Positions 29,178-42,809 of a stretch of DNA of 64,000 nt are shown here, in pieces (within the stretch, counting starts at the first letter, position 1; each line of letters starts with the position of its first letter). Below the pieces are notes generated by a model. It saw only the letters and a list, made by a program, of their open reading frames with translations. It was not told the DNA's origin and searched no databases. A program made the translations under genes and the position numbers. The stretch spans positions 11,806 through 75,805 of the forward strand of contig JBEGTG010000001.1 of NCBI GenBank assembly GCA_041179525.1, read 5' to 3'. Source of the DNA: Bacteroidota bacterium (lineage in GTDB: Bacteria; Bacteroidota; Bacteroidia; Flavobacteriales_D; Crocinitomicaceae).

Positions 29178-32100
29178 TTATCGAATTAAAGTGATGTTAC
29201 CTGTAAATTTCTTAGTGCTGCCGTTTTCATAAGTGACATCACAAACATATGCATACACGCCGCTATTGCAAGGTTTATCCTTGTGGTTGCCATCCCATTT
29301 GAATTGTTTATTCGTAGAAGCAAACATCAGGTTGCCCCAGCGGTCCACAATTTTGAAGTTAATAGCAGCGATATCCTTACCGGCAATAATTTGATATACT
29401 TCATTGAGTCCATTGCCCACACCATTTGGTGAAAATGCAGTTGGGAAGAAGATTCCGGTGGCGCATTCAGGACTGCTGCCATCTGGGTCACATGGGTCTA
29501 GTGGATTAGAACCGTTTGTGACTTCTGTGCCATCGTTGATGCCATCGCCGTCGGAATCGGGATTGAGTGGGTTGGTGCCAAGCACGCCTTCTTGCGCATC
29601 GGTAAGACCGTCAAAGTCGGTGTCTATTTGACAACCAGGGAGGGTGTCGTCGGGGTCGCAAGGGTTGAGCGGATCAGAGCCGTTAGTGACCTCTGCGCCA
29701 TCGGTGAGGCCATCGCCATCGGTATCGGGATTGGTAGGGCTTGTGCCGGCGGCATTCTCCTGACTATTGGTAAGGCCATCGCCGTCTTGGTCACAAGGGC
29801 CTGCGTTTGCATTCGGAATACACGGATTGGTGTTGTCTGGGTCGAGCTCATCCATAACGCCGTCGCCGTCGGTGTCGATGATAGATGACTCTAGTGCGTC
29901 AATGATGCCATCGCCGTCGGTATCGGTTGGAGCGCCAACATTGCCAATTTCGGCGCAGTCGTTCTCGCCGTCGCCATCGGTGTCTGGGTTAGATGGGTCT
30001 GTACCCACTAAGTTTTCATCGACGTTCAAACATCCGTCGCCATCCACATCTGGAACGTCTGGAATAAAGACAGCTACAATGGTCTCGGGGCCGTTGATGT
30101 TAATGAAATTATTGGCTGTAGTGCTTGGCAAGCCAAGCGGGCCTGTAGTAACGGTCCAGTGGCTAAACACAAAGCCAGGATTGGCATTTGGTTCAATTAA
30201 AGTTTGAATTCCACCGAAATAACTAGTGGTCCAAGGATATGAAGGTGGGTTGATGGAGTTGACCTGAATGGTACCTGCACCTGCCGGACTCACATCAAAA
30301 GTAGTAGCAAAAGGACCGGAAAGTTGGTAACAGTCAATTAGGCCTTGCTCTAGTGCCAAGCAGCGCTGATTGATGAAATTGCGCAGTTGGGTCACGCGCG
30401 ACTGCCATCCGTTGTAGGTTCCACCCCATTTGGCGCAATGCGCCGTCATTTCGGGTCCTATTTCGGCGACCATGCTGTCGAGGAGCGCAATCATGGTGGC
30501 ACAACTAAATGAAGTATTGATTAAGTCGATGTATCGAGTGATGTAATACTGTTCAACAATTGGGTTTTCATTGATCAGTTTTTCTAAGATATCTGTGTGG
30601 CCTTGACCGCCCGGATTGGGTAGGTTTTCTGCGTTACAAGGGTCGGCATTGGCGCTGGGATCAGGGATACCGGTATAGTTGATATAGTGCCCAAAAGTAG
30701 CATCCATGTCCCAGAGGGCATAACCCCATTTTTTATGGTCTCCGGTGGTATCTAGACCTCTCCACCACGAGGTATTCCAGTTGAGCCAGTCTTGGTTGAC
30801 TGTATAAGAATTGATCATGAAGTAATCGGCCAGTGATTTCCAACTGAGCAAGGAGTCTACATAGTTGAAGTTTGCAGGATTACCCATGTTGTTGGTGAGA
30901 ATATAGTTGCGTAAGGCATTCCAACTAGGCTGCGCGTTTGGCGCACCGTATTCTTGCCAGGTACCACCCCAAGTTTTGAGGTAGTGCATATTGTATTTGT
31001 CTTGGCCGTAGTATTCATCGGCGTAGTCGTGGTCATCGGCTTTTTCTCGGATTTCATATACACCCCAAAAATTGCCATTCAAATAAACAACTGCCGGACG
31101 CCAGGTACGCTCGTCGAGTTTCATGTCGGCGCGGATCGAGAGTGTATGAATCAAGGCATCGCGGATATGGGCACCTTGTTCAAATGGGTAGTTGTCGCTG
31201 GCTCCTGGTTTTAGGATCACGCGCTGAAATTCGTCTCGACTTTTTTCAGGGAAAATTTGGTGATCGAGGTCGCCATTTTGACCGTATTGGTCTCTGCATA
31301 TAAAGTCAAAACCGCGCTGCGCATAAGCCCAAGAGTCATTGCCATGCTTGTTGAAGTCTCCTTCAGATTCGTCGATAAATGAGCCATCTTGTTCAAATAG
31401 CTCAAATGAACCAATTCGATTCTGAGGATTTTGGCTGCCGTTTGCTACTAAAGAATAAACCCCTTGGCTACAAACCGAAACTACTGGAACAGTATGGGTT
31501 ACATTGATAAAATAGGTGTTGGTCTCTGTGAAAGAAGACAGGGTGGTGCCAAAAGCGGTGGCGCGCAATACTTTGGTAGTGGTGATATTGATGGGGGCTG
31601 TGTATGTTGGAGAGGTGGCTATAGGATCTGAACCGTCTAGGGTGTAGCGGATGGTAGCCGTTGGGTCAGCACAGGTAATGGTGATGGTTTGTGCGCCCGG
31701 ATAGAACCCTGGAGCTAAACTAAAAACAGGTTTGGGTGGGTAAAAATTCACGCCACCAGCGTTGTTCGCATTGGGCGTTGGAGTGGTAAACAATTTGAAG
31801 TCGATGGCACCATTGCTGGAGCGACCTACCGAATGATTTGACTTGGTGAGGTGTACAATTTTAAAGGAGTCTATGACTACAGCTGATGGATTGGATAAGA
31901 TAATCCAGTCGCCATCGGTTTGAGAAAGATTAAAGTTGGGATGGTATTCATTGCCAGAAACCAAATTTCGCTTGGAGCAAAAAACCATTTTAAAGCCATT
32001 GGCGTTGATATTACCACTCGGAATTTGCCACTTAGTGAGGTTAGATGCCTTGTCTGAAAGATACCAGCCTGTTAAATCAACGGCTGCTGCTGTTGAGTTG

Positions 32101-32240
32101 TAGAGCTCCACCCAGTCTTCTCTCTCTCCAAATGCATCGGTAGGACCTGTCATGTTTGAACAGGAATATTCGTTGATTACAACCTGCGAAAAAACAAGAG
32201 AAGGAAGGCAAAAAAGGAAGGAGAGTAGTAAGTGTTTCAT
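29178..32240 (-). CDS. CotH kinase-family protein with lamin-tail domain, chitobiase-C-like domain, thrombospondin type 3 repeats and type B T9SS CTD
   Basis: LTD: VINEYSC....DWVELYN....[10 protein letters not shown]. CotH core: [20 protein letters not shown]...[23 protein letters not shown]3: repeated DTDGDG. CTD: [15 protein letters not shown]...[10 protein letters not shown]...GVYAYV. Confidence 0.8.
29465..30062 (-). repeat. Coding tandem array of thrombospondin type 3 (Ca-binding D.D.DG..D) repeats
   Basis: At least 8 copies of DxDGDG/DTDGDG-type units within the CotH gene. They generate long spurious ORFs in other frames. Confidence 0.7.
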
Positions 32241-32352: not shown

Positions 32353-32784
32353 ATGAAAAGACTTTCCATTATTTTGTCAATCGCAATTCTCGCGCTTAGT
32401 TTTTCAGGCTGTAAAAAATATGAAGGCGAAGGTGGTCGCAGTGAAATCAAAGGAAAACTGACGATAAATGAAAAGCTATACATCAATGGTGCATTGGCAC
32501 AAACCGTGAGTTACGCAGGGGCAACCGAAGATGTTTACATCGTTTACGGCACCCAAGACAGCATCTTCGATGACAAAGTTGAATGCAACCACGATGGCTC
32601 ATTTAGTTTCAATTATTTATTCCCAGGTACTTACACCGTTTTTGCCTACAATGAGGTTTTTCATACCGGCAATTCTGTCACCAATAACGACGACGATTAC
32701 TACACCAAAGAACCTGTCAAATATACCATCGAAATTGGTAAAAATGAGGTCAAAGATTTAGGTGAAATCACCGTTATTCGTTAA
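32353..32784 (+). CDS. Small lipoprotein, carboxypeptidase-regulatory-like beta-sandwich candidate
   Basis: Lipobox LSFSGC. DGSFSFNYLFPGTYTVFAY resembles CarboxypepD_reg-type strands. Confidence 0.45.
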   Translation: MKRLSIILSIAILALSFSGCKKYEGEGGRSEIKGKLTINEKLYINGALAQTVSYAGATEDVYIVYGTQDSIFDDKVECNHDGSFSFNYLFPGTYTVFAYNEVFHTGNSVTNNDDDYYTKEPVKYTIEIGKNEVKDLGEITVIR

Positions 32785-32786
32785 GA

Positions 32787-33503
32787 ATGCGCAATCTAGT
32801 CCTTAGTTTACTGTTATTTCCAATTGTGGTCTTGGGCCAAAACAGTACTGTGTTCCAAGTATGGAACGAAATTGGCGTAGGTTATAAACTAGATAAAAAG
32901 CAAAGCCTCGCTTTTGACCTTACCACTCGCCATGGCGCTGGAGGTGTGCAAACCTTCTTCCCACAAATTTCTTACAAGTATAAACTCAATAAATACATTC
33001 GTCCTTCTTTAGATTACCGCTACATCGGCAGCCGTACAGAGGAGGGGAACTTTACTTATCAGCACCGATTAAATGTCAATGTGCAAACCAATTATGACCT
33101 CGATCGCTTACAACTAGGCTTAAGGGCTCGTTATCAATTTACAACAAATCGACTCGCAGCGAATTATGAACCTGAATTTGGCGAGGCTTTTCGCATCAAG
33201 CCAAGTATCGTTTACGACATCAAAAAATCTGTGCTTCTGCCGCAAGCATCCATGGAATTTTTTACCGGCCCCATGGATGGCCAGCAAGGATATCACCTTA
33301 ACCGCATTCGTTGGAGCATAGGTCTAGGATTTGACTGGGATGGGCCACATTCATTAGAACTCGCGTATTTGTACGACCAACGCATCAATAGTCCAGGGTC
33401 TTTGAATCGGGCCATTCTTAATTTTTCTTATGGATACAGTATTAGAGAAGTGAAATCTTCCAAAAATCAAAGTCCTAGAAAAGCACCTGGCCGTTATCTT
33501 TAA
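32787..33503 (+). CDS. DUF2490-like outer-membrane barrel protein
   Basis: Signal peptide. Alternating-pattern strands (RHGAGGVQTFFPQISYKYKLNKYIRPSLDYRYIG...YQHRLNVNV). 3 nt after the lipoprotein gene. Confidence 0.55.
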   Translation: MRNLVLSLLLFPIVVLGQNSTVFQVWNEIGVGYKLDKKQSLAFDLTTRHGAGGVQTFFPQISYKYKLNKYIRPSLDYRYIGSRTEEGNFTYQHRLNVNVQTNYDLDRLQLGLRARYQFTTNRLAANYEPEFGEAFRIKPSIVYDIKKSVLLPQASMEFFTGPMDGQQGYHLNRIRWSIGLGFDWDGPHSLELAYLYDQRINSPGSLNRAILNFSYGYSIREVKSSKNQSPRKAPGRYL

Positions 33504-33504
33504 T

Positions 33505-35079
33505 TTAATCCAAATAACTATTGGCGGCCAAGCGGTCCATGACTACTTGTAGATTCTCTTGTTTCTTTTTTTGACGCGACTCAATAGCTGTTGTGGTAAA
33601 ATACTGGTGCTGCTTGAGAAAGTTCACTTGAATGGAGTCCCATTCTTTGCGCGACTTGATTTTGCCCATTTCAGTGAGCTCTTTTCTGAGGTTATCGGCA
33701 ATTTGCTCAAAGTCTGAACGCCCCAAATAATCGAGATCGGCATCGCAAATGATTTCTTGAAGTTTGTTGATGGGTTTGTGCGGAATTTCAGTGGCATGAA
33801 TCAGCTCGACGATGGTTTTGACGTGCTGCTCAGTGTAACCATATTTAGGCAATATTTCTTGTGCCATACGTGCGCCAATTGCCTCATTGTGGTCGTATTG
33901 ATTAATGAAACCGGCATCGTGAAAAATAGCTGCGGTCTTTAGCAAGAACAGTCCTTCGTCGGTAACACCTTCTAGCAAGGCGATGCGCTCGACAGATTTA
34001 ACAACATCTTTGGTGTGGTTGATCGAATGGTAATAAAGCGTTGGGGAGAGGTTTTTCTGAAGGATACCCATGACGTGGTGCTCGGTCTTGTAGTATTTGA
34101 TGGAGCTGTAGTGGTGTAATTTTTTAATCTCTTCAAAACGAGAATTCGGAATGAGGCCTTCCCCATTGACCGACAGCTCGGGCTTGATCCGTTGGACCAC
34201 ATACATATCTACTTTGGTACGCGATTTTGTCAGGGCTTTGCCCTTGTAATCACATTCAAAATACGGCTCAATTTGCTGAAAGGTATTGCCTGTTATGGTT
34301 ACTTTTCCGGGCTCTCCGAGCATCTCCATGCGCTGCGCAAGGTTCACAGATGAACCCCAAACGTCGTAGGCCAAACGAATATTCCCGATGATTCCGGCAA
34401 TGACGGGCCCGGTATTGATCCCCAAACGGATTTCCCAGTAGTCTTCGTGGTCAGCAATGGCCTCGTACTTCAACTTATCCATGAAAGCTTGAATTTGCAA
34501 AGCGGCACAGCATGCGTCTATTGGATTGGTTGAGTTTTCTACCGGTACTCCTCCAGCACACATGTAGGCATCTCCAATTGTCTTGATTTTCTCGAGGTTG
34601 TTGGCCTGAATGATTTCGTCGAACTTCTGAAATAAGATGTCGAGTTTAGAAACAATGCGGCTCGGCGCCATTGATTCTGAAATCCGGGTAAAGCCCACTA
34701 CATCTGTAAACATAATGGAAACTTGCTTGAACGCCTGTGCTTTTACTTTTCCATTGCGCTTGAGTTCAATTACGACCTGTGAGGGCAAGGTATTGAGCAG
34801 CCACTGTTCGGTTCGGTCTTTTTCGCGCTGCAAGAGTGCTTGCTGCTCCTCTACCTTGTTTTTTTCTTCTTCAAGTAGGCGTTTTTGCTCCTCAATTTTG
34901 GTCTTTTGTAGGCGAATTTCTTTGGTGCGTTCGGCAATTTTGACCTCGAGCCTTACCTGATTTCTGCGCGATGTTTCTATGCGGCTGCGGATAAAAACAA
35001 AAATCAACAAAAACAAAAGTGTGGCCACCAAAATAGATAGCCACCACGATTGAAAAATAAAGAGCCCTATGAACAGCAC
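33505..35079 (-). CDS. Membrane-anchored class III adenylate cyclase fused to an HD-domain phosphohydrolase
   Basis: Hydrophobic N-terminus, then a 60-aa coiled coil. CHD has metal Asp in IMFTDVVGF and KTIGDAYM, and substrate Lys (KTIGD) and Asp (AYDVWG), giving an ATP-type pair. The C-terminal HD domain carries H..H......AAIFHDAGF. GTG start 3 nt after the upstream stop. Confidence 0.8.
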   Translation of the reverse strand: MLFIGLFIFQSWWLSILVATLLFLLIFVFIRSRIETSRRNQVRLEVKIAERTKEIRLQKTKIEEQKRLLEEEKNKVEEQQALLQREKDRTEQWLLNTLPSQVVIELKRNGKVKAQAFKQVSIMFTDVVGFTRISESMAPSRIVSKLDILFQKFDEIIQANNLEKIKTIGDAYMCAGGVPVENSTNPIDACCAALQIQAFMDKLKYEAIADHEDYWEIRLGINTGPVIAGIIGNIRLAYDVWGSSVNLAQRMEMLGEPGKVTITGNTFQQIEPYFECDYKGKALTKSRTKVDMYVVQRIKPELSVNGEGLIPNSRFEEIKKLHHYSSIKYYKTEHHVMGILQKNLSPTLYYHSINHTKDVVKSVERIALLEGVTDEGLFLLKTAAIFHDAGFINQYDHNEAIGARMAQEILPKYGYTEQHVKTIVELIHATEIPHKPINKLQEIICDADLDYLGRSDFEQIADNLRKELTEMGKIKSRKEWDSIQVNFLKQHQYFTTTAIESRQKKKQENLQVVMDRLAANSYLD

Positions 35080-35082
35080 TGA

Positions 35083-36213
35083 TTAGGAGAATCTATAAAA
35101 CCAACTGACCATCGGCAATGGAAAAGACATACTTTTGGTAAGCACACCTGCCAAACTGATCTGAAAGGCCTTGTTTTCTGATCTTTGAAAGCGCATGCCG
35201 GGCATAATCACCATTACATTTTGACGCGAGGTGCCAGCAGTAACTGTTTCTTGAAAATTATAAACTTCTACTTGGCTAAGTAAACCGTTTGCGTCATATT
35301 GTTCTGTCCTGGGCTGACCTCCTGTAACCGACTTGTAACTATTGCTTGCCATGATATACATGCAATCGTAAATAAAGCTGGCCTTTTTACCCACTTTTGC
35401 TTGCCCTGCAAGCCCAATGATTGGCGCTTTGTAGTTAGATTGATCGCTTGCATAAAAATAGCCATCAATAGGAAGTTCTGGATACATCCCATTTGGGGCG
35501 GCATAAACACCAGGCGTATAAATAGGCTGGCCAAAATTTGTGTTAGACATTCGTGGATTGAAATAGCCGTAGCCTACAGATAAAGTTGCGTTGTTGCGGC
35601 GGTCTCCGTAGGTAATCATGCCCCAGTGTAAGCCTCCATAACCCTTACCTAAATTGAAGTAACCTGAGGTGCCTAAGAGCGTGCCCACACCATAATTAAT
35701 TTTTGGATTGGCAGTACCTCGAGTGTATTTTAATGCCAAGGCAATTGGCGAACCAACCCAGGTAGCCATCACGCCAACTGAAAAATCTTTGTGGACCGCA
35801 AAATGGACTTCCGGACCGTATAGATTGACCATGGCGTAATTCTCCCCTTTTTTAATCGGAAAACAATTGGTTGTAAATTGGTAACGCGTTGTAAAAACAT
35901 CTGCTGAACTCACCACTCCATTGACCATATCCTCGGCATAATCAATAGGACGAATCAATTTGATATCGCTTTTAGGAATATAAATTTTACCCAATGATTT
36001 GGTCTCAATCAAGACTTCTCGGCCGTCGTCAGAAAGGATGAGCCCCACATACTCATTGCCGTCGTATTTGACAACCAAATATTTGGTGGTATCGGAACTT
36101 GGTACGCTCGTATTTGGTGCGCTCGTATTTGGTGCTTGCGCATGTACTTGAAGACTTCCAAGTAAGCAAATCAAAATGGGAAGAAGCGTTGAAAAACTGA
36201 GTCGTATTTTCAT
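35083..36213 (-). CDS. Predicted outer-membrane beta-barrel protein, paralog A (unrecognised family)
   Basis: Signal peptide. Small N-terminal domain (YLVVKYDGNEYVGLILSDDGREVLIETKSLGKIYIPKSDIK). Gly/aromatic strand region. C-terminal PMVSWFYRFS. About half of the residues are identical to 38765-39871 over long blocks. Confidence 0.6.
   Translation of the reverse strand: MKIRLSFSTLLPILICLLGSLQVHAQAPNTSAPNTSVPSSDTTKYLVVKYDGNEYVGLILSDDGREVLIETKSLGKIYIPKSDIKLIRPIDYAEDMVNGVVSSADVFTTRYQFTTNCFPIKKGENYAMVNLYGPEVHFAVHKDFSVGVMATWVGSPIALALKYTRGTANPKINYGVGTLLGTSGYFNLGKGYGGLHWGMITYGDRRNNATLSVGYGYFNPRMSNTNFGQPIYTPGVYAAPNGMYPELPIDGYFYASDQSNYKAPIIGLAGQAKVGKKASFIYDCMYIMASNSYKSVTGGQPRTEQYDANGLLSQVEVYNFQETVTAGTSRQNVMVIMPGMRFQRSENKAFQISLAGVLTKSMSFPLPMVSWFYRFS
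36106..36135 (-). repeat. Perfect 15-bp tandem duplication inside paralog A
   Basis: gctcgtatttggtgc occurs twice back to back. It encodes APNTS-APNTS just after the signal peptide. Confidence 0.9.
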
Positions 36214-36281
36214 GGTCTAAAAAATATAGATCGATTAAGCGGTAAATCTAGTTATAACGACACAAAGAGCCAAGAAGCGCG

Positions 36282-36332
36282 AACAAAATTGCTACAATTT
36301 GAAAAACCAACTGGACATAGGCAATTGTATTA
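36282..36332 (-). pseudogene. Relic of the C-terminal strand of a third barrel paralog
   Basis: The minus-strand frame reads ...QLPMSSWFFKL-stop. Compare PLPMVSWFYRFS-stop (A) and PVPMLSWFYKF-stop (B). At DNA level, aaaaccaactg is shared with both paralog 3' ends. The open frame is only 25 codons long. Confidence 0.35.
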
Positions 36333-36427
36333 TTGCACAAACGCCCTGGCTTCCGAAGAAGCAGAGCGTCTATGCGAATCACTAACTAAAAGTTGTTTTT
36401 TGATTTTTATCTAGTTTGCTTGAAGGC

Positions 36428-37651
36428 TTAATAATAACGCTGCGGACTCGTTGTTTTATTAATTGGTTGTTTGCTCTTTTGAACATTAAAGCCCATATTC
36501 ACACCAACATAACCGCCTCCCTTTTGAGAGCTATAAAATATGTTTACAGGAATATTCAAGGCCCCTGCTTGGAACGTTTTTCCAAATGCAATCAAAAAAG
36601 ATGTGGATAATTCTTTGCCCCCTCTTTTATCAAAACATTCAGTAAAATTATATCCGTATTCTGGCGCTGAAACCATACCATTGGCATCAACTAAACCATT
36701 TGCTGTAGCGTAGGCAATCCAATCTTGTCTCGAAAAATATTGACCTTTGTCAGGTCCGGAATAATTTGGATTATATTGCTTTTGCGTATCAAAAAAGCCA
36801 TCTGAAACAGATTTCACGCCAAAGCGCGGGCCAAAAGCGAACTCCCAATTTCCTTTACCGAAACGGAATCCGTTCAATAAAGACACCGATGGCACAAACT
36901 GTCCTTGCTCAAGGCCAGAAACATTTAAAATGCCTTCGACAAGCGCTGAGAAATTTTCCGTCCCTACATACTGACCTTCAAGTTGATAACCTATCATAGA
37001 TGCAATAGGCTGAATACCCAAACCTCCGTACTGTTCATCGCGAATGGCAAATTCATTTAAATCTCCAGTAAGATAAGCAAAACCAATTCTAGGTCCTGAA
37101 TTATTGACTTTTCCAACATTATTAGAAGTAATCACTTCATTTTTGAAGGCCAAGCGATCTGCAGTCACTTTGTCTACGGTAAGCCCATGCATTTCGGCCA
37201 AAACAATTTCTACCATGCGCTGGATTTCTAATTCTTGGTTGTCAAATTCGCGAACAGCCGACTTATAAAGGCTTTGTGCTTTGACATCAATGATTTTAAT
37301 CGTCACGACAATTTTATTGCCCAAACCGTCTATCGAGCCAGACATCACGTAATCAACTTTGAGTTCTTCGCCTAATTTCGACAAGCAATTTTGGCCATAA
37401 CAGCCTACTTTGTACTCCTCTTTGGCCTGGATGATTTCGTTCATGTCAAATTCATCATAGACTTTGTACTTATTGATTTTAATCAACTCTAAGCGCAGCA
37501 TTTTTGCCACAGACTCTGCCTTAATGGCGAGTGCATTGACATTGGGGTTAGCCACAGCAATTGTGCTGCTGGGTTGGGCAAAATAACTTGCCATGCCACT
37601 AAAGAAAATGGCCACTAGTAATAAAACGGATTGTAAATTTTTTGTTTTCAT
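36428..37651 (-). CDS. Secreted protein: LpoB/CsgG/TolB-N-like periplasmic domain plus Gly/aromatic-rich barrel-like C-terminal half
   Basis: Signal peptide without a lipobox Cys. The N-domain pattern IAVANPNV......ESVAKMLRLELIK...YKVYDEFDM.EI......YVMSGSIDGLGNKIVVTIKIIDVKA resembles the small alpha/beta periplasmic module of LpoB/CsgG-type proteins. ATG at 37651. Confidence 0.5.
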   Translation of the reverse strand: MKTKNLQSVLLLVAIFFSGMASYFAQPSSTIAVANPNVNALAIKAESVAKMLRLELIKINKYKVYDEFDMNEIIQAKEEYKVGCYGQNCLSKLGEELKVDYVMSGSIDGLGNKIVVTIKIIDVKAQSLYKSAVREFDNQELEIQRMVEIVLAEMHGLTVDKVTADRLAFKNEVITSNNVGKVNNSGPRIGFAYLTGDLNEFAIRDEQYGGLGIQPIASMIGYQLEGQYVGTENFSALVEGILNVSGLEQGQFVPSVSLLNGFRFGKGNWEFAFGPRFGVKSVSDGFFDTQKQYNPNYSGPDKGQYFSRQDWIAYATANGLVDANGMVSAPEYGYNFTECFDKRGGKELSTSFLIAFGKTFQAGALNIPVNIFYSSQKGGGYVGVNMGFNVQKSKQPINKTTSPQRYY

Positions 37652-37748
37652 AGCATACAATTTAATAGTACAAAGTTTGGCATAAAATAGAGTGCTGCAA
37701 AACTGAATAGCGGAGCTAGTTCATTTCGAGTTGCGAAAAACGCAAGTT

Positions 37749-38762
37749 TCAAGAAAGAAAGTCGAGGTCTGCTTCTATTTTCTTGCGAAACATACCGATT
37801 GTTTTCTCAAAATCGGCAAAGAAGTTATTGCGCTCGCGCTCGTTCACAACGCTTATGAGACTGGAGTTGGCCAATTGCTTATCGATCACTTGCTTGGCGT
37901 CTTGCACATATTGCGCATCGGTTGTTTGCAAGTAATTCATAATATTATGCGAGAGAAACAAGCCCTGTTTGTCTTTGCTCTCGTAATAAAAAGCGGAATC
38001 GGCATTGATGGTTTCATTGAGGTACATCTCAAAACGGTTGCCCGTAGCCGGCGCCTGGGTGCCATAAATGAATTTTTTACCGTAACCCGCTTGTTCGCGA
38101 AGGTGAGCAGAGAACATCAGGAGGCGATCGCACAAAAAGAGCGCGTAGCTTGGGTCTTCAAACTGATTGGATTTGTAGTAATAATGGATCTGACGCAAGA
38201 AACCACGCATGAGTTCAGGGTCGAAGATTTCTACAGATGGGATGGTGTTATAAGACTGCAAGATGGACTTCCCGAGTTCAAAAGCGCGGTCTGAGGTTTT
38301 TTCGTGGCGAAATAATACGTTTTTGTAGTCAGGTATTTGCAAGTGTGTTTTGGCCCAAAAAAACAACTTAAAGCGCACCAATTGCGGAAAATTCAATAAC
38401 TGAAAAAAATGCGTGTTGTTGATGGTGAGCATTATTTTAGGATCTTCAAGATGACGCAAACGCTCAAATGCCTCTAGAATGCCTTCTAGGTAAGATTCCA
38501 AGGAGAAATCATACGCATTGAGGGGCGTATACCGGAAAATTACATTCGTTTTTTGTTGTAAGATCAGGGAGTCAAAAGAAATGTCGAAGGTTTTGCACAA
38601 CCTTTTGAGTTCGTCGATGGTCAGTGCTGTTTCGTTGCGCATGCGGCGATAAGCGGCATCCATGCTAATGTGTAGTGTCTCGCTCAAAACATGACCCAAA
38701 GCGTCACCCGGAGGGAGCTTTGCTTTAATGAGCTGCAATAACTGATCTTGAACAGTTTCCAT
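37749..38762 (-). CDS. BetR-type helix-turn-helix transcriptional regulator with large uncharacterised C-terminal domain
   Basis: N-terminus LGHVLSETLHISMDAAYRRMRNETALTIDELKRLCKTFDISFD is HTH-like. 337 aa. The ATG lies 2 nt after the stop of paralog B. Confidence 0.55.
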   Translation of the reverse strand: METVQDQLLQLIKAKLPPGDALGHVLSETLHISMDAAYRRMRNETALTIDELKRLCKTFDISFDSLILQQKTNVIFRYTPLNAYDFSLESYLEGILEAFERLRHLEDPKIMLTINNTHFFQLLNFPQLVRFKLFFWAKTHLQIPDYKNVLFRHEKTSDRAFELGKSILQSYNTIPSVEIFDPELMRGFLRQIHYYYKSNQFEDPSYALFLCDRLLMFSAHLREQAGYGKKFIYGTQAPATGNRFEMYLNETINADSAFYYESKDKQGLFLSHNIMNYLQTTDAQYVQDAKQVIDKQLANSSLISVVNERERNNFFADFEKTIGMFRKKIEADLDFLS

Positions 38763-38764
38763 GG

Positions 38765-39871
38765 TTAAAACTTATAAAACCAACTGAGCATTGGTACAGG
38801 AAAAGAATAATTATTTACGTTGACCTGATAGTTGACGATTTCTTCACGGCGGCCAATCATACCGGCGAGCGTCACCTGAAAAGCCTTGTTTTCGTCCTTT
38901 TGAAAACGCATACCAGGCATAAAAACGATATTGGTGCTTTTGACCTCAATAAATGGATCATTGTATACTACTGAACTTGGCTGACCTGTATTTGGGTTGT
39001 AATAATAGTCAACTTGTTGGCCATCAAAAACCTTGCGCTTGTTGCCACCGATGATCATGACGTCCCAAATAATGCTCGCTTTTTTACCGACTGCTGCAAT
39101 ACCTGAAATACCAATTATTGGTGATTTAAAGTTTCCTACTTCATTTTCATAAGTGAGCATTTCTGGAATGGGGAAACTATAAGTGCCTTGGTTGAGCACA
39201 GCTGCATAAGTACCCGGTTGGTAATAGAAATCTTGATTGTTAAATGAGAAGCCAGAATTGAAATAACCATAACCCAATGAAAGTGTGGCATTGCTGCGGC
39301 GTGTTCCATACGTAGCCATTCCCCAATGTAGGCCGCCAAACCCTTTTGCCTGGTTGAGGTAACCAGTAGATGCCATGATGGTGCCGACGCCAAAATTGAT
39401 CATTGGGTTTTGTGTAGGGATGGTATATTTCAAAGCTAACGCAATTGGACTGGCTATCCAGGTGGCCATAATCCCGACACTCAGGTTAGGCAGGATCCCA
39501 AAATGAACTTCGGGGCCATATAGATTGATGAGCGCGTAATTCTCGCCTTTTTTGATCGCAAACGCGTTAGTGGTAAATTGGTACCTAGTAGTAAAAACTC
39601 CCTGGCCTAAGTATTCGCCTGACTTGAAGTCTGTCTGCTCATCCACCAAAGTAATGCTTTTCACTTCTGATTTCGGGATGTATATTTTGCCGAGTTGCTG
39701 AGTTAAAATCAAGAGTTCACGGCCGTCATCAGCTAATATTTGTGCAACGTATTCTATTCCATTGTTGCGAATAATTAAGTACTTAAGGGTATCGCCTTCT
39801 GATTTTGCCACTTGCGCATTGGCCGTGAATGAACAATACAAAATCAAAAACAACAGAAAATTTTTCAGCAT
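38765..39871 (-). CDS. Predicted outer-membrane beta-barrel protein, paralog B
   Basis: Signal peptide. Blocks shared with paralog A include GKIYIPKS, VFTTRYQFTTN, IKKGENYA.(I/V)NLYGPEVHF, SPIALALKYT, GGLHWGM.TYG.RR.NATLS.GYGYFN, KAPIIG, VGKKAS, MPGMRFQ..ENKAFQ and SWFY. Terminal Phe. Confidence 0.6.
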   Translation of the reverse strand: MLKNFLLFLILYCSFTANAQVAKSEGDTLKYLIIRNNGIEYVAQILADDGRELLILTQQLGKIYIPKSEVKSITLVDEQTDFKSGEYLGQGVFTTRYQFTTNAFAIKKGENYALINLYGPEVHFGILPNLSVGIMATWIASPIALALKYTIPTQNPMINFGVGTIMASTGYLNQAKGFGGLHWGMATYGTRRSNATLSLGYGYFNSGFSFNNQDFYYQPGTYAAVLNQGTYSFPIPEMLTYENEVGNFKSPIIGISGIAAVGKKASIIWDVMIIGGNKRKVFDGQQVDYYYNPNTGQPSSVVYNDPFIEVKSTNIVFMPGMRFQKDENKAFQVTLAGMIGRREEIVNYQVNVNNYSFPVPMLSWFYKF

Positions 39872-39895
39872 GATGCAGGTTTTATAAGCTCTAAA

Positions 39896-42145
39896 TTAAT
39901 CATTCATATAAGTTCTTTGCACGCGAGGTGAGATACTTGTAAGAATTTCATAAGGAATGGTCTGTGCTTTTTCTGCAAATAGACTGAGCGCTTGCTGTGT
40001 ACCGATGATTTCTACCTCGGCATCTGGCCGAGCGTTGGGCGCTAGAACCATGATCATGTCCATACAAACTCTTCCTATTGTTGGACAAAAGTTGCCGTCG
40101 ATATAAACCCCTCCTCTTCCATTGCTAAGATTTCGTTTGAAACCATCGGCATAGCCCACAGGAATCACTGCAATTTGGCTATCGGCTTCTAGTATTTCTG
40201 AGCAGCCATAACCAACACAAGCGCCTTTCTTGAGTTGCTTTAATTGGGAGATTCGACTGGTCCAAGAAATCACTGGCTTTAATTTTTGCTCAAACTGTGG
40301 GTCGTGATTGACCCCAAAAAGACCAATGCCTAAACGCACCATGTCGAATTGCGCTTGCGGAAAATGAGCCGCGCCTTCAGAGTTCAAGAGGTGCTTGAGA
40401 AAAGGATAAGGAAGCGCGCTTTCAAACTGGTTGCAAATGGCGTTAAAACTGCTAATTTGCTGCGCATTCATGGGATGCTGGGGCTCATCTGCACAAGCCA
40501 TATGGCTGTAAACACTCTTCACACAAACTTCTGGTTGGGCGCGCAAAGTTTGCAACAACTGATCGGTTTGCTCGGGCAAAAAACCTAGGCGATGCATGCC
40601 GGTATCAAACTTCAAATGAATGGGGTAATCTTGAATTTGAGAGGCAATCAGTGTCCGGATAAACGCATCGAGGTGTGTAGGGCTATAAATGGCAGGCTCA
40701 AGTTGGTAAGCAATGCAGCTCTCAAATCCAGCAGGCTCGGCATTCATGACTAAAATTGGCAGTTTTATGCCCGCTTGCCTGAGTAAGACCCCTTCATCCG
40801 CATAAGCAACGCCAAAATAATTGACGCCCCCCGCAAGCAGTTGCTTTGCAATTTGATCTAAGCCTCCGCCATATGCTTGCGCCTTGACCATGGCAAGTAT
40901 TTGAGTTGTTGGAGCCAAACTTTGCTGGTACTGACGCAAGTTGTGCTGGAGTGCAGAAAGATCGTAACGCACCACCGTGCTGTGCGACTTGCGCTTCCAT
41001 TTGGAAAGTAGCGCCTCGGTCAGCAAATGCTGGTTGCCTTTGATCAAGACGACCTGATCCGAAATATCGGGAAGGATGGCGGGCAGCGCTGTCCAAATAT
41101 GGTAGGTATCAATTTGGTTGGCTAACAACAAACGTATGATTTCTTCTTTTAAATGCGCTTGATTCTCGGAAAGTAAACAACAGACCATGTGCTGTTTTCC
41201 TGGAGCCACTGCTTTCAAAAAGGCAAGCGAACCCTCAAAAGCAAGCAGATCTAAGCTGTAAGCATCATTGATGAGCGTGGCGCCATGAATGCCTTCGAAG
41301 GTTTCTAGCCGATTGGCCAATTCAGGAAGCTCAGCAACAGCTTTTGGGCTACATGAACCCAAGCGGAGTGCGCAAGCAATGGCTACGCGTGCATTATGGA
41401 CACGTACGGGATCATTGAAGGGTATTTGATCGAATAAGTTTTTTGAATTTTCGTCGCTAAGCGCCTCTAGGTGGTCGCCATCGATGCGCCAATCGGCGCC
41501 AATCGAAAGAGATTGCAGCGCTACCTTGTAGGCTTGATCAGTATCAAATTCATGGCGAAAACCCGCATTTGTGTTGGTAATCACCACGTAGTTGGGCGCA
41601 ATCATGGCATGGAGCTTCTCCATTTCGCCAGGTTTGCTCACCGCCGCCTCTATGAGGGCTAAATTGCCTTCTAGCGGAAGCTGTAGCAACGAGAGTGCCA
41701 CCCCAAGTTGCGAATTGTAACTTTTGGGGCTGCGCTGTACCTTCAGTTGGTCAGCTAAAAGATGGTAAATCCATTCTTTTACGGTGGTTTTACCAATGGC
41801 GCCAGCAATGGCTAAAATGGGGTAGTTGATTCTTTTGCGGTGAAAGGTCGCAAGTTGTTGGAGTGCTTCTAGCACATCATCAACGATGTAAAAGCAAGCT
41901 TCAGCAAATTCTTTGGCAGGTTGCTGATCCAATACAAAGATGCGAATGCCTTTGTCGTATGCTGCTTGAACATATTCAAAGCCACTGCGCTTGGGGCCGT
42001 TTAGTCCAAAAAAGGCTACGCCTTCACTGCGCGAAATTTTGCGAGAGTCGTAAACTACTTCTTGAACAAGGACAGCACTTGGCGTGCCCACAAAACGTGC
42101 AGCAAAAATTTCGGTCAATTGAGCGTGGGTCAGATTCAGTTTCAT
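39896..42145 (-). CDS. Bifunctional UDP-N-acetylmuramoyl-tripeptide:D-Ala-D-Ala ligase / alanine racemase
   Basis: The N-terminal Mur ligase half has GAIGKTTVKEW. The C-terminal half has the PLP site AMVKAQAYGGG and a racemase C-terminal domain. 749 aa. Confidence 0.85.
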   Translation of the reverse strand: MKLNLTHAQLTEIFAARFVGTPSAVLVQEVVYDSRKISRSEGVAFFGLNGPKRSGFEYVQAAYDKGIRIFVLDQQPAKEFAEACFYIVDDVLEALQQLATFHRKRINYPILAIAGAIGKTTVKEWIYHLLADQLKVQRSPKSYNSQLGVALSLLQLPLEGNLALIEAAVSKPGEMEKLHAMIAPNYVVITNTNAGFRHEFDTDQAYKVALQSLSIGADWRIDGDHLEALSDENSKNLFDQIPFNDPVRVHNARVAIACALRLGSCSPKAVAELPELANRLETFEGIHGATLINDAYSLDLLAFEGSLAFLKAVAPGKQHMVCCLLSENQAHLKEEIIRLLLANQIDTYHIWTALPAILPDISDQVVLIKGNQHLLTEALLSKWKRKSHSTVVRYDLSALQHNLRQYQQSLAPTTQILAMVKAQAYGGGLDQIAKQLLAGGVNYFGVAYADEGVLLRQAGIKLPILVMNAEPAGFESCIAYQLEPAIYSPTHLDAFIRTLIASQIQDYPIHLKFDTGMHRLGFLPEQTDQLLQTLRAQPEVCVKSVYSHMACADEPQHPMNAQQISSFNAICNQFESALPYPFLKHLLNSEGAAHFPQAQFDMVRLGIGLFGVNHDPQFEQKLKPVISWTSRISQLKQLKKGACVGYGCSEILEADSQIAVIPVGYADGFKRNLSNGRGGVYIDGNFCPTIGRVCMDMIMVLAPNARPDAEVEIIGTQQALSLFAEKAQTIPYEILTSISPRVQRTYMND

Positions 42146-42717
42146 GACAACGCTTTTTGATAACAGCTTCTGCAGAGCGGTTGGTATTTTTCTACAGCAC
42201 CGACTAATACTTGCTCGGTTTGGGCGACCGTGCGATGCGAGAATTGCGCTAGTTTACCGCAGTGTACACATACAGCATGTACTTTACTGACATATTCTGC
42301 AATAGCCATTAGTTGTGGCATAGGACCAAAAGGAATCCCTTTGAAATCCATATCTAAACCCGCAACGATGACACGAACTCCTTTGTTTGAAAGTTCATTA
42401 CAAACTTGAACTATTTGGGCATCAAAAAACTGTGCTTCATCTATCGCTACAATTTGTTCACCTTTCCATCCGTCGAACACTTCTTGTGCGGATGCAACGC
42501 GCCTGGCCTCCCAACTTTGCCCTTGATGACTCACCACTGCCTCAGTGGCATAGCGGTCATCGATAAGCGGTTTGAAAAGTAAAATAGACTGTTTGGCAAA
42601 AGCCGCACGACGGAGTCTGCGGATAAGTTCTTCGGTTTTACCAGAAAACATAGAGCCACAAATCACCTCTATCCAACCTTGTTGTCCGTTTTCTTTGGTA
42701 AATTGCTCTAAAAACAT
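42142..42717 (-). CDS. tdk: Thymidine kinase
   Basis: P-loop GSMFSGKTEELIRR, DEAQFF, and Zn ribbon CVHCG...CRSC. Start moved to ATG 42717 (MFLEQF). Confidence 0.9.
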   Translation of the reverse strand: MFLEQFTKENGQQGWIEVICGSMFSGKTEELIRRLRRAAFAKQSILLFKPLIDDRYATEAVVSHQGQSWEARRVASAQEVFDGWKGEQIVAIDEAQFFDAQIVQVCNELSNKGVRVIVAGLDMDFKGIPFGPMPQLMAIAEYVSKVHAVCVHCGKLAQFSHRTVAQTEQVLVGAVEKYQPLCRSCYQKALS

Positions 42718-42749
42718 AGTGCTGTTGAATGAGATTGTGAAATGTTTTC

Positions 42750-42757
42750 TAATTTTG
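42750..42757 (+). promoter_or_regulatory. Candidate -7 box (TAnnTTTG)
   Basis: Exact TAATTTTG, 53 nt upstream of ATG 42810. A 7-bp hairpin (gtgcaat/attgcac) lies between the box and the start codon. Confidence 0.3.
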
Positions 42758-42809
42758 ATTCGGTAGTGCAATATACTGCCGATTGCACGAAATTAATAAG
42801 TTATAAGCA

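Follow-up and report, generated by a model that had tools for sequence, protein, structure and literature searches.

Genes for outer-membrane (OM) proteins that stand directly against genes for cytoplasmic regulators raise the question of whether their products act together, and a locus in an uncultured member of the Crocinitomicaceae (Bacteroidota; assembly GCA_041179525.1, contig JBEGTG010000001.1) poses that question twice over. The locus lies at positions 33505-39871 of a 64,000-nucleotide (nt) stretch of the contig, hereafter the window, and comprises five open reading frames (ORFs), all on the minus strand. From upstream to downstream these are barB (38765-39871), encoding a secreted OM beta-barrel paralog of 368 amino acids (aa); the gene for a helix-turn-helix (HTH) protein of 337 aa, predicted to be a soluble one-component regulator (37749-38762); a gene for a secreted protein of 407 aa, referred to here as Lpo-like (36428-37651); barA (35083-36213), the second secreted OM beta-barrel paralog, with 376 aa; and the cyclase-HD gene (33505-35079), which has a GTG start and encodes a membrane-anchored class IIIa adenylate cyclase with an HD phosphohydrolase domain. 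Read directly from the sequence, the gaps are 24 nt between the upstream murF-alr gene and barB, 2 nt between the barB stop and the HTH start (TAA-CC-ATG), 97 nt between the HTH and Lpo-like genes, 214 nt between the Lpo-like gene and barA, and 3 nt between the barA stop and the cyclase start (TAA-TCA-GTG). The coordinates, order, gaps and paralogy of the five genes agree in every case with those given in an earlier sequence-only reading, which had interpreted the locus as an outer-membrane-to-cytoplasm sensing module with each barrel gene translationally coupled to a different cytoplasmic output. We favour another explanation, to which we assign a probability of roughly 55%, namely that the HTH regulator and a probable operator control the neighbouring OM protein genes, and that the adenylate cyclase-HD gene is an unrelated neighbour. 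As a whole, the region is a chromosomal neighbourhood that is conserved among uncultured freshwater Crocinitomicaceae.

A total of 151 related loci were compared (cited below by L numbers), comprising 71 from GTDB species genomes, seeded with the barrel family, and 80 from metagenomes, seeded with the HTH family; L072 and L073 come from the organism of the window itself. Almost all barrel-seeded loci share the order tdk, murF-alr, zero to two barrels, HTH, Lpo-like, zero to three barrels and cyclase-HD, followed on the other strand by a DUF2490 gene and a small lipoprotein gene, and then by the gene for a CotH/type IX secretion system protein. The block is thus core and syntenic in Crocinitomicaceae-like freshwater lineages, with a barrel copy number that varies. 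At a murF-alr identity to the window of about 60%, the HTH protein is still 90% identical, the cyclase 90%, the Lpo-like protein 75%, barB 71% and barA 67%, which makes the HTH protein and the cyclase the most conserved proteins of the neighbourhood. The earlier description of this block as the only clearly accessory-looking one in the window was therefore wrong, although its remark that the gene combination was not recognised as a described system agrees with the literature that we searched, where no description was found and nothing relevant emerged on a cyclase-HD or LpoB/CsgG/FlgO combination.

The intergenic junctions, counted over distinct junction sequences, differ markedly between the two barrel-regulator pairs. 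The barrel-HTH gap measures 4 nt or less in 62 of 67 junctions (median 2 nt, longest 12 nt), and this tight joint persists at a barrel identity of 50% and is also found outside the murF-alr context (L051, L052, L057, L058, L135 and L146). Because the HTH start lies only 2 nt past the barB stop, barB and the HTH gene appear to be co-transcribed and are probably coupled; the pair is positioned for coupled expression, and the spacing makes translational coupling probable. The barrel-cyclase gap, by contrast, is that short in only 6 of 42 junctions (median 55 nt, range -50 to 573 nt). Of the translational coupling proposed for each barrel and its output, the part concerning the HTH gene consequently stands and the joint recurs across relatives, whereas the part concerning the cyclase does not, its tight joint being specific to the lineage of the window. 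The cyclase gene directly follows the Lpo-like gene in 23 junctions, and in several loci that lack barA the Lpo-like gene is succeeded by an intrinsic terminator (GGGGCTTCGGCCCC-T7), a TAnnTTTG -7 box and then the cyclase. Similarly, the HTH gene directly follows murF-alr, with no barrel, in 20 junctions. Where the HTH protein is 63-69% identical to that of the window, the HTH and Lpo-like pair recurs in new contexts with neither a barrel nor a cyclase nearby. The HTH and Lpo-like genes thus form the stable core of the block, and the barrels are dispensable. Where a barrel does follow the Lpo-like gene the two are co-oriented, with a gap of 10-33 nt in half (15/30) of the distinct junctions and a median of 31 nt.

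Alignment of 47 distinct HTH-Lpo-like intergenic sequences revealed three conserved blocks in otherwise randomised sequence, consisting of the palindrome TTGCG-N5-CGCAA, ATTCAGTTTT(G) and CTTTGTA. In the window the palindrome, a predicted operator, occupies positions 37731-37745 (no strand assigned) and starts 94 nt upstream of the Lpo-like ATG; we take this conserved ATG, at 37651, as the start of the gene, since the TTG listed at 37660 is not conserved. The exact palindrome occurs once in the 64-kb window, and loci with an exact match nearly always have a single copy. Allowing at most one mismatch, it precedes 107 of 113 Lpo-like genes at a distance of 40-160 nt, in 76 of them at exactly 94 nt. 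It remains about 81-95 nt from the Lpo-like start despite HTH-Lpo-like gaps of 170 nt (L069) and 664 nt (L068), keeps its place by the Lpo-like gene in L136 and L139 despite an inserted gene, and is doubled in L046, in front of a barrel gene inserted between the HTH and Lpo-like genes. The arms are invariant, the centre and flanks vary and there is no covariation, while as an RNA hairpin the element is weak (-6.4 kcal/mol, z = -1.5); invariant arms without covariation, together with the weak RNA fold, are the signature of a protein-binding site. A role as terminator of the HTH gene was rejected, given the weak hairpin, the lack of a U-tract and the fact that the palindrome travels with the Lpo-like gene when the two genes are separated. 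The conservation pattern points to TTGCG-N5-CGCAA as a putative operator of the adjacent HTH protein, which is the most obvious protein to bind it, its predicted recognition helix (aa 34-41) being equally invariant, with D35, A36, Y38, R39 and R40 fixed, as are S33 and R42 just outside it.

The remaining two blocks fit a Bacteroidetes sigma-A promoter, for which the consensus is TTTG at -33 and TAnnTTTG at -7 (PMC6847099, PMC9723704), and would serve transcription of the Lpo-like gene. The predicted promoter spans 37671-37702 on the minus strand, with the -33 TTTG at 37698-37701 and the -7 box AAACTTTG at 37671-37678, separated by a 19-nt spacer; the -7 box is without the consensus T at -12. 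Relative to this promoter the palindrome is centred at roughly -70, about 35 bp upstream of the -33 element. A scan with sigma-70 and terminator consensus patterns gave counts at chance level, such patterns being unsuited to Bacteroidetes, and Rfam returned no matches at the locus. A -7-like box of the form TAnnTTTG (e.g. TAAATTTG and TATTTTTG) also overlaps or directly follows the murF-alr stop in about 60 loci, 15-25 nt ahead of the barB or HTH start. The corresponding position in the window is 39872-39900, where the box is imperfect (TAATTTAG); it may drive transcription of the barB-HTH unit.

In the HTH protein itself, an XRE/BetR-type HTH (about aa 1-68) precedes an alpha/beta domain of the effector type, roughly 250 aa long. 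The match of the protein to Pfam BetR (PF08667) falls just short of the threshold (20.4 bits, cut-off 21.6) and that to HTH_3 is also sub-threshold, while 25 of 26 relatives match PF08667, with E-values as good as 1.2e-5. It has no hydrophobic segment (maximum 19-residue hydropathy 0.87) and so no transmembrane helix. A profile search of PDB sequences returned only the XRE domain 3op9. In an AlphaFold2 (AF2) model of medium confidence, built from a shallow alignment (predicted local distance difference test score, pLDDT, 77), the N-terminal domain has the five-helix HTH fold and superposes in Foldseek on P22 c2, SinR and ImmR with target-normalised template-modelling (TM) scores of 0.62-0.73 and root-mean-square deviations of 2.3-3.0. 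The top match, and the only one over the full length, is TrmB (3qph; E 2e-3, probability 0.99), at a weak TM score of 0.28 and 9% identity, and Pfam TrmB has no match in the protein. TrmB, a sugar-sensing regulator of Thermococcales, is of similar length and likewise joins an N-terminal DNA-binding domain to a C-terminal alpha/beta effector domain, but differs in that its DNA-binding domain is a winged helix, where that of the window protein is of XRE type, and no sequence similarity is shared. If the resemblance is meaningful, the protein would work as a one-component regulator that binds a small molecule. A peptide receptor of the RNPP type (Rgg/PlcR/PrgX) was considered and rejected, as the model is mixed alpha/beta with eight strands after residue 100 and RNPP matches reach a probability of 0.3 at most. 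The BetR connection likewise needs qualification. BetR of Serratia marcescens (BetR/EepR; BetR-Reg2) acts as the response regulator of a two-component system, possesses a receiver domain and has its gene alongside that of a kinase (PMC7618870), whereas Pfam detects no Response_reg domain in the window protein, ORFs and synteny reveal no kinase gene at the locus and the C-terminal domain, about 250 aa of alpha/beta structure, is a different one; what is shared is therefore the DNA-binding domain alone, an N-terminal XRE-like HTH. The model and domain content are most consistent with a soluble one-component regulator that combines an XRE/BetR-type DNA-binding domain with a possibly TrmB-like effector domain. 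The family is large, since an exhaustive profile search of 1.84 billion representative proteins gathered 2480 clusters at 50% identity, mostly full-length at about 335 aa, against 401 relatives from a word-indexed search. The few named members, from Taishania and Fluviicola, are labelled 'hypothetical' or, in a UniRef relative, 'BetR N-terminal domain-containing protein', and no characterised member was found.

The explanation that we favour would divide the locus into three expression units in place of one signalling array. The first would be the barB-HTH bicistron, co-transcribed and probably translationally coupled. The second would have its own promoter, transcribing the Lpo-like gene together with barrel genes in a tandem run of variable length, which in the window genome amounts to one intact copy and one deleted copy. 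The third would be the membrane-anchored adenylate cyclase-HD gene, with a terminator and promoter of its own in most relatives and abutting barA in the lineage of the window. We propose that the HTH protein binds the palindrome as a soluble dimer, that its C-terminal domain, which is possibly TrmB-like, senses a small molecule in the cytoplasm, and that it would activate (as opposed to repress) the Lpo-like promoter, whose -7 box is imperfect. Several considerations weigh against this explanation. A factor other than the HTH protein could bind the palindrome, and the TrmB match is weak (E 2e-3, TM 0.28) and comes from a medium-confidence model with a shallow alignment. A plain local regulator also leaves the 1-4 nt barrel-HTH joint unexplained. 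The first unit, to judge from the 24-nt gap and the imperfect -7-like box, may be read through from murF-alr. Finally, the cyclase start lies just 3-18 nt past barA in the window and its closest relatives, leaving no room for a promoter, and the gene may well be co-transcribed here with the Lpo-like gene and barA, sharing their regulation. If regulation by the HTH protein is nevertheless correct, it would provide an operator (TTGCG-N5-CGCAA), a target promoter and a candidate effector fold for a large Bacteroidota regulator family.

It is unlikely, in our estimation, that the arrangement reflects a neighbourhood effect alone, in which the genes are held together by nothing beyond the tdk-CotH synteny, the palindrome is bound by some other factor or has an RNA or 3'-end role, and the targets of the HTH protein lie elsewhere. 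The whole region of about 15 kb, housekeeping genes included, does hold its order, such that adjacency within the family is weak functional evidence, and the very large HTH family includes members without an Lpo-like gene (L126-130 and L149-151). Such an effect is nonetheless difficult to reconcile with the recurrence of the HTH gene, the Lpo-like gene and the palindrome in different contexts, for example beside rpsP, ahcY and gyrB, or with a palindrome that accompanies the Lpo-like gene when insertions part it from the HTH gene and whose arms are invariant without covariation or a strong RNA fold. It also fails to explain why the 1-4 nt barrel-HTH joint is retained in the six non-syntenic loci named above.

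The Lpo-like protein, whose gene would be the immediate target of the HTH regulator, starts with a signal peptide that has no lipobox; an N-terminal domain resembling FlgO, LpoB and DUF3280 is followed by about 230 aa forming a C-terminal module. All of its Pfam matches are sub-threshold, including LpoB (PF13036; 13.8 bits, cut-off 22.3), FlgO (15.2 bits, cut-off 22.6) and DUF3280, and weak matches to the same group are consistent among 18 relatives (FlgO in 16, DUF3280 in eight, LpoB in five), one homolog being called 'LpoB' by PGAP. There is no Pfam match to the CsgG domain (PF03783) at E <=1, and the family profile has no relative among PDB sequences. In comparison with LpoB, an activator of PBP1B, the protein is not a lipoprotein, as its N-terminus (MKTKNLQSVLLLVAIFFSGMASYFAQ) contains no cysteine and hence no lipobox Cys, and the C-terminal module is additional. 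The idea that this module is a diverged barrel copy was dropped after hhalign against the barrel family aligned the signal peptides only, and a home-made amphipathic beta-strand score for a C-terminal 'barrel' was discarded because it failed on barA, the positive control. Two loci carry a 265-aa protein in place of the Lpo-like gene (L128 8117-8914 and L132 9115-9912), in which a different small beta-type N-domain is attached to the C-terminal module known from the Lpo-like protein (E 6e-13); the L132 gene still has the palindrome, 95 nt upstream. From this fusion to another N-domain, the C-terminal module appears to be the constant part of the regulated protein.

The barrel genes barA and barB encode proteins that are 50% identical (E = 4e-118), and neither has a match in Pfam, NCBIfam or PADLOC. 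An AF2 model of barA from 26 family members (pLDDT 74) shows a signal helix, a small five-strand N-domain (aa 44-89), a linker (aa 100-135) of low model confidence in which many positions are invariant, and about 12-14 long antiparallel strands that make up the barrel, with variable loops. Foldseek against the PDB returned outer-membrane barrels only (FapF, FadL, OmpT/Pla, CymD and BamA), at E-values around 1e-4 and low TM scores, and every match at E <=1e-3 is an OM barrel. The generic features of the class are likewise present, with a signal peptide, a closed antiparallel barrel and a C-terminal aromatic residue, the two proteins ending in ...SWFYRFS and ...SWFYKF. The model thus confirms the fold class of barA as an outer-membrane beta-barrel of no specific family, and the unrecognised secreted barrel family put forward from the sequence proves to be a real, unannotated OM barrel family. 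With FapF, FadL, OmpT/Pla and CymD barA has in common the signal peptide, the barrel of about 12-14 strands and the C-terminal aromatic residue; it differs from them in having an additional beta domain, small and N-terminal, and a linker with an invariant motif (TTRYQFTTN...GENY...NLYGPE), and TM scores do not exceed 0.5. Assignment to PorP/SprF, FadL, OmpA-like or other named families was rejected, there being no library match. Conservation is uneven along barA, with a top-residue frequency of 0.76-0.82 in the N-terminal half and 0.45-0.50 in loops 221-255 and 300-320, which also carry indels. The favoured explanation sees in the barrels OM proteins whose periplasmic and inner core is conserved and whose loops are hypervariable, subject to rapid gain and loss in tandem. 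An unannotated OM barrel family with these properties in abundant freshwater Crocinitomicaceae would be relevant to interactions with phages and grazers. Lone barrel paralogs also occur beside unrelated genes. Five contigs from metagenome-assembled genomes (L010, L018, L044, L055 and L057) carry barrel-family genes that are otherwise confined to Crocinitomicaceae-type loci, under labels such as Chryseobacterium gleum, Sphingomonadales, Polynucleobacter meluiroseus and Chitinophaga pinensis; three of them (L010, L018 and L044) also have the syntenic neighbourhood, and the labels are probably taxonomic or binning errors in public records.

By analogy with CsgG and FapF, the Lpo-like protein and the barrels might instead make up an apparatus that exports or assembles a surface polymer or fibre, with the HTH protein as its regulator, although we regard this as improbable. 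The analogy draws on FapF, which gives the best barA superpositions (target-normalised TM about 0.5), on the FlgO/LpoB/DUF3280 group matched by the Lpo-like N-domain, which we take to be tied to CsgG-like lipoprotein folds, and on the co-orientation and 10-33 nt spacing of Lpo-like and barrel genes in half of the distinct junctions. It is weakened by the absence of a candidate substrate gene (amyloid subunit or repeat protein) from the locus and of any Pfam match to CsgG, FapF or curli families; the Foldseek matches, moreover, are generic to many barrel types, and many genomes have no barrels beside the Lpo-like gene. A bolder idea, and a decidedly long shot, is a new envelope homeostasis circuit, in which the Lpo-like protein and the barrels would form an OM complex touching peptidoglycan by way of the LpoB/FlgO-like and small N-terminal domains, the TrmB-like domain of the HTH protein would sense a cell-wall precursor or sugar in the cytoplasm, translational coupling would tie the dosage of the regulator to barrel synthesis, and the cyclase would have been drawn into the same transcript here. 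It is suggested by the tight barrel-HTH joint, the Lpo-like protein and the place of the block directly behind murF-alr, and if true it would give a regulatory role to the very large and uncharacterised Bacteroidota regulator family described above.

The cyclase-HD protein consists of a transmembrane segment (about aa 1-33), a coiled coil (about aa 35-105), the cyclase domain (aa 112-296; 34192-34746) and the HD domain (aa 353-448; 33736-34023). The match to Guanylate_cyc (PF00211) is strong (162.3 bits, cut-off 21.9, E 1.2e-47), and that to HD (PF01966) is above threshold (25.8 bits, cut-off 22); the HD dipeptide motif is present in 75 of 77 orthologs, and the window protein has the H...HD...D metal ligands of the HD phosphohydrolase superfamily. 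Its PDB relatives are AC9, AC5, AC8 and the mycobacterial Cya, similarity being greatest to class IIIa enzymes (AC9, AC5 and Cya), and the motifs FTDVVGFT, KTIGD and YDVWGSSVNLAQRME are intact in 77/77 orthologs. These motifs supply, as in Rv1625c-type enzymes, the metal-binding (two Asp), adenine-specifying (K, D) and transition-state (N, R) residues, all within one chain as expected of an enzyme active as a homodimer, and by its sequence the protein is very likely an adenylate cyclase. In comparison with other class IIIa membrane cyclases (mycobacterial Rv1625c/Cya and the mammalian transmembrane enzymes), the catalytic domain is similar, with all canonical positions present, but there is a single transmembrane anchor in place of six helices and an additional C-terminal HD domain. 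The anchor, a single hydrophobic stretch from residue 1, leaves essentially no periplasmic part, and the window protein indeed lacks a periplasmic sensor of its own, as had been noted earlier. Orthologs from deeper lineages are much longer, at 1127-1299 aa (L068 14565-17948, L069 13832-17446 and L128 10306-14205), and the two that were scanned (L069 and L128) have a Reg_prop beta-propeller and a Y_Y_Y domain ahead of the TM-cyclase-HD core (TM here denoting the transmembrane segment). The Reg_prop/Y_Y_Y sensor is typical of Bacteroidetes hybrid two-component systems, and in these two loci a periplasmic sensor of that style is joined to an adenylate cyclase in place of a kinase. The cyclase-HD architecture is thereby recorded both with and without the propeller/Y_Y_Y sensor; relative to the long forms, the window cyclase has lost, or never had, this part. 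Because the deeper orthologs have a sensor of their own, the cyclase family does not depend on barrels for its input. A Pycsar-type defence cyclase was also considered and rejected, since the PycC match (41 bits, PADLOC) is mere class III homology beside the 162 bits of PF00211 and the gene is core and 84-100% conserved. A ferritin gene lies immediately upstream of cyclase-HD, or in the equivalent place, in L015 (11160-11678), L017, L018, L037, L128, L132 and L150, its identity established by Pfam in L015 only; in L015 and L037 the ferritin end and the cyclase start overlap by one nucleotide.

This leaves the outer-membrane-to-cytoplasm sensing module with which we began, in which the barrels and the Lpo-like protein would act as OM or periplasmic sensors relaying to the HTH protein and the cyclase, each barrel coupled to its output, and which we consider the least probable of these alternatives: although both junctions are tight in the window genome, the barrel-HTH junction is strongly conserved, the window cyclase has no periplasmic domain and the Lpo-like N-domain is one of a class that is periplasmic and associated with the envelope, nothing spans the inner membrane as a relay (the HTH protein having no transmembrane segment and the cyclase an anchor only), no barrel precedes the HTH gene in 20 junctions or the cyclase in 23, a terminator and promoter or a ferritin gene splits the cyclase from the upstream genes in several relatives, the long-form cyclase orthologs have their own Reg_prop/Y_Y_Y sensor, and the HTH protein and cyclase are 90-98% conserved against 67-88% for barrels of variable copy number, the opposite of what is expected of co-evolving partners. 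The likeness to FecA-FecR-FecI is limited to an OM barrel gene beside a transcription-factor gene, as Pfam and hydropathy analysis show no inner-membrane transducer, TonB-dependent receptor domains or pair of extracytoplasmic function sigma and anti-sigma factors at the window locus, and an HTH protein that is soluble takes the place of the regulator. No link from the outer membrane to either cytoplasmic protein emerged; the idea of a new device for signalling between outer membrane and cytoplasm is not borne out, and current ideas are not overturned.

The deleted barrel copy of the second unit can be traced in the 214-nt spacer between the Lpo-like gene and barA, where a relic of a third paralog had been noted earlier. 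The nearest relatives having one (L001-5 and L026) carry an intact third paralog at exactly this place, and the spacer aligns to these loci at either flank of a gap that measures about 1 kb, which confirms the relic. As delimited by blastn and alignment to the loci with an intact copy, the relic extends over 36292-36404 on the minus strand and consists of a mutated start and signal-peptide remnant (about 36335-36404), in which ATG has become ATC and 4 nt are deleted, the deletion junction (about 36325-36335), and the last ten codons with the stop (36292-36324; LPMSSWFFKL*). Within it, at 36335-36375 on the minus strand, is a hairpin that is strong (-28.4 kcal/mol, z = -6.3) and has UUCG as its loop. 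The hairpin core CTGCTTCTTCGGAAG occurs once in each of 30 loci, always about 70 nt past the Lpo-like stop (2610-2650 in L001), and sits either within the stretch of the middle paralog that codes for the signal peptide, where that paralog is intact, or in spacers from which it is missing; it has been retained through seemingly independent deletions, their independence being judged without a tree. The hairpin could serve the Lpo-like transcript as a 3' element, or it could mark a hot spot for deletions.

The genes flanking the block are preserved with it. Upstream, murF-alr (39896-42145) combines a Mur-ligase domain and a complete alanine racemase in one 749-aa ORF, a fusion confirmed by Pfam, and overlaps the thymidine kinase gene (42142-42771) by 4 nt; both the fusion and the overlap are kept across the family. 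Downstream, the plus-strand interval 32353-33503 encodes two proteins, a predicted barrel of the DUF2490 type and a small lipoprotein whose CarboxypepD_reg-like match is weak and below threshold, and is convergent with the cyclase gene, ending 1 nt from its stop. Beyond it, on the minus strand at 29178-32240, lies the gene for a protein that combines a CotH domain and TSP3 repeats with a type IX secretion signal (CHU_C), and all three of these downstream genes are syntenic in the relatives.

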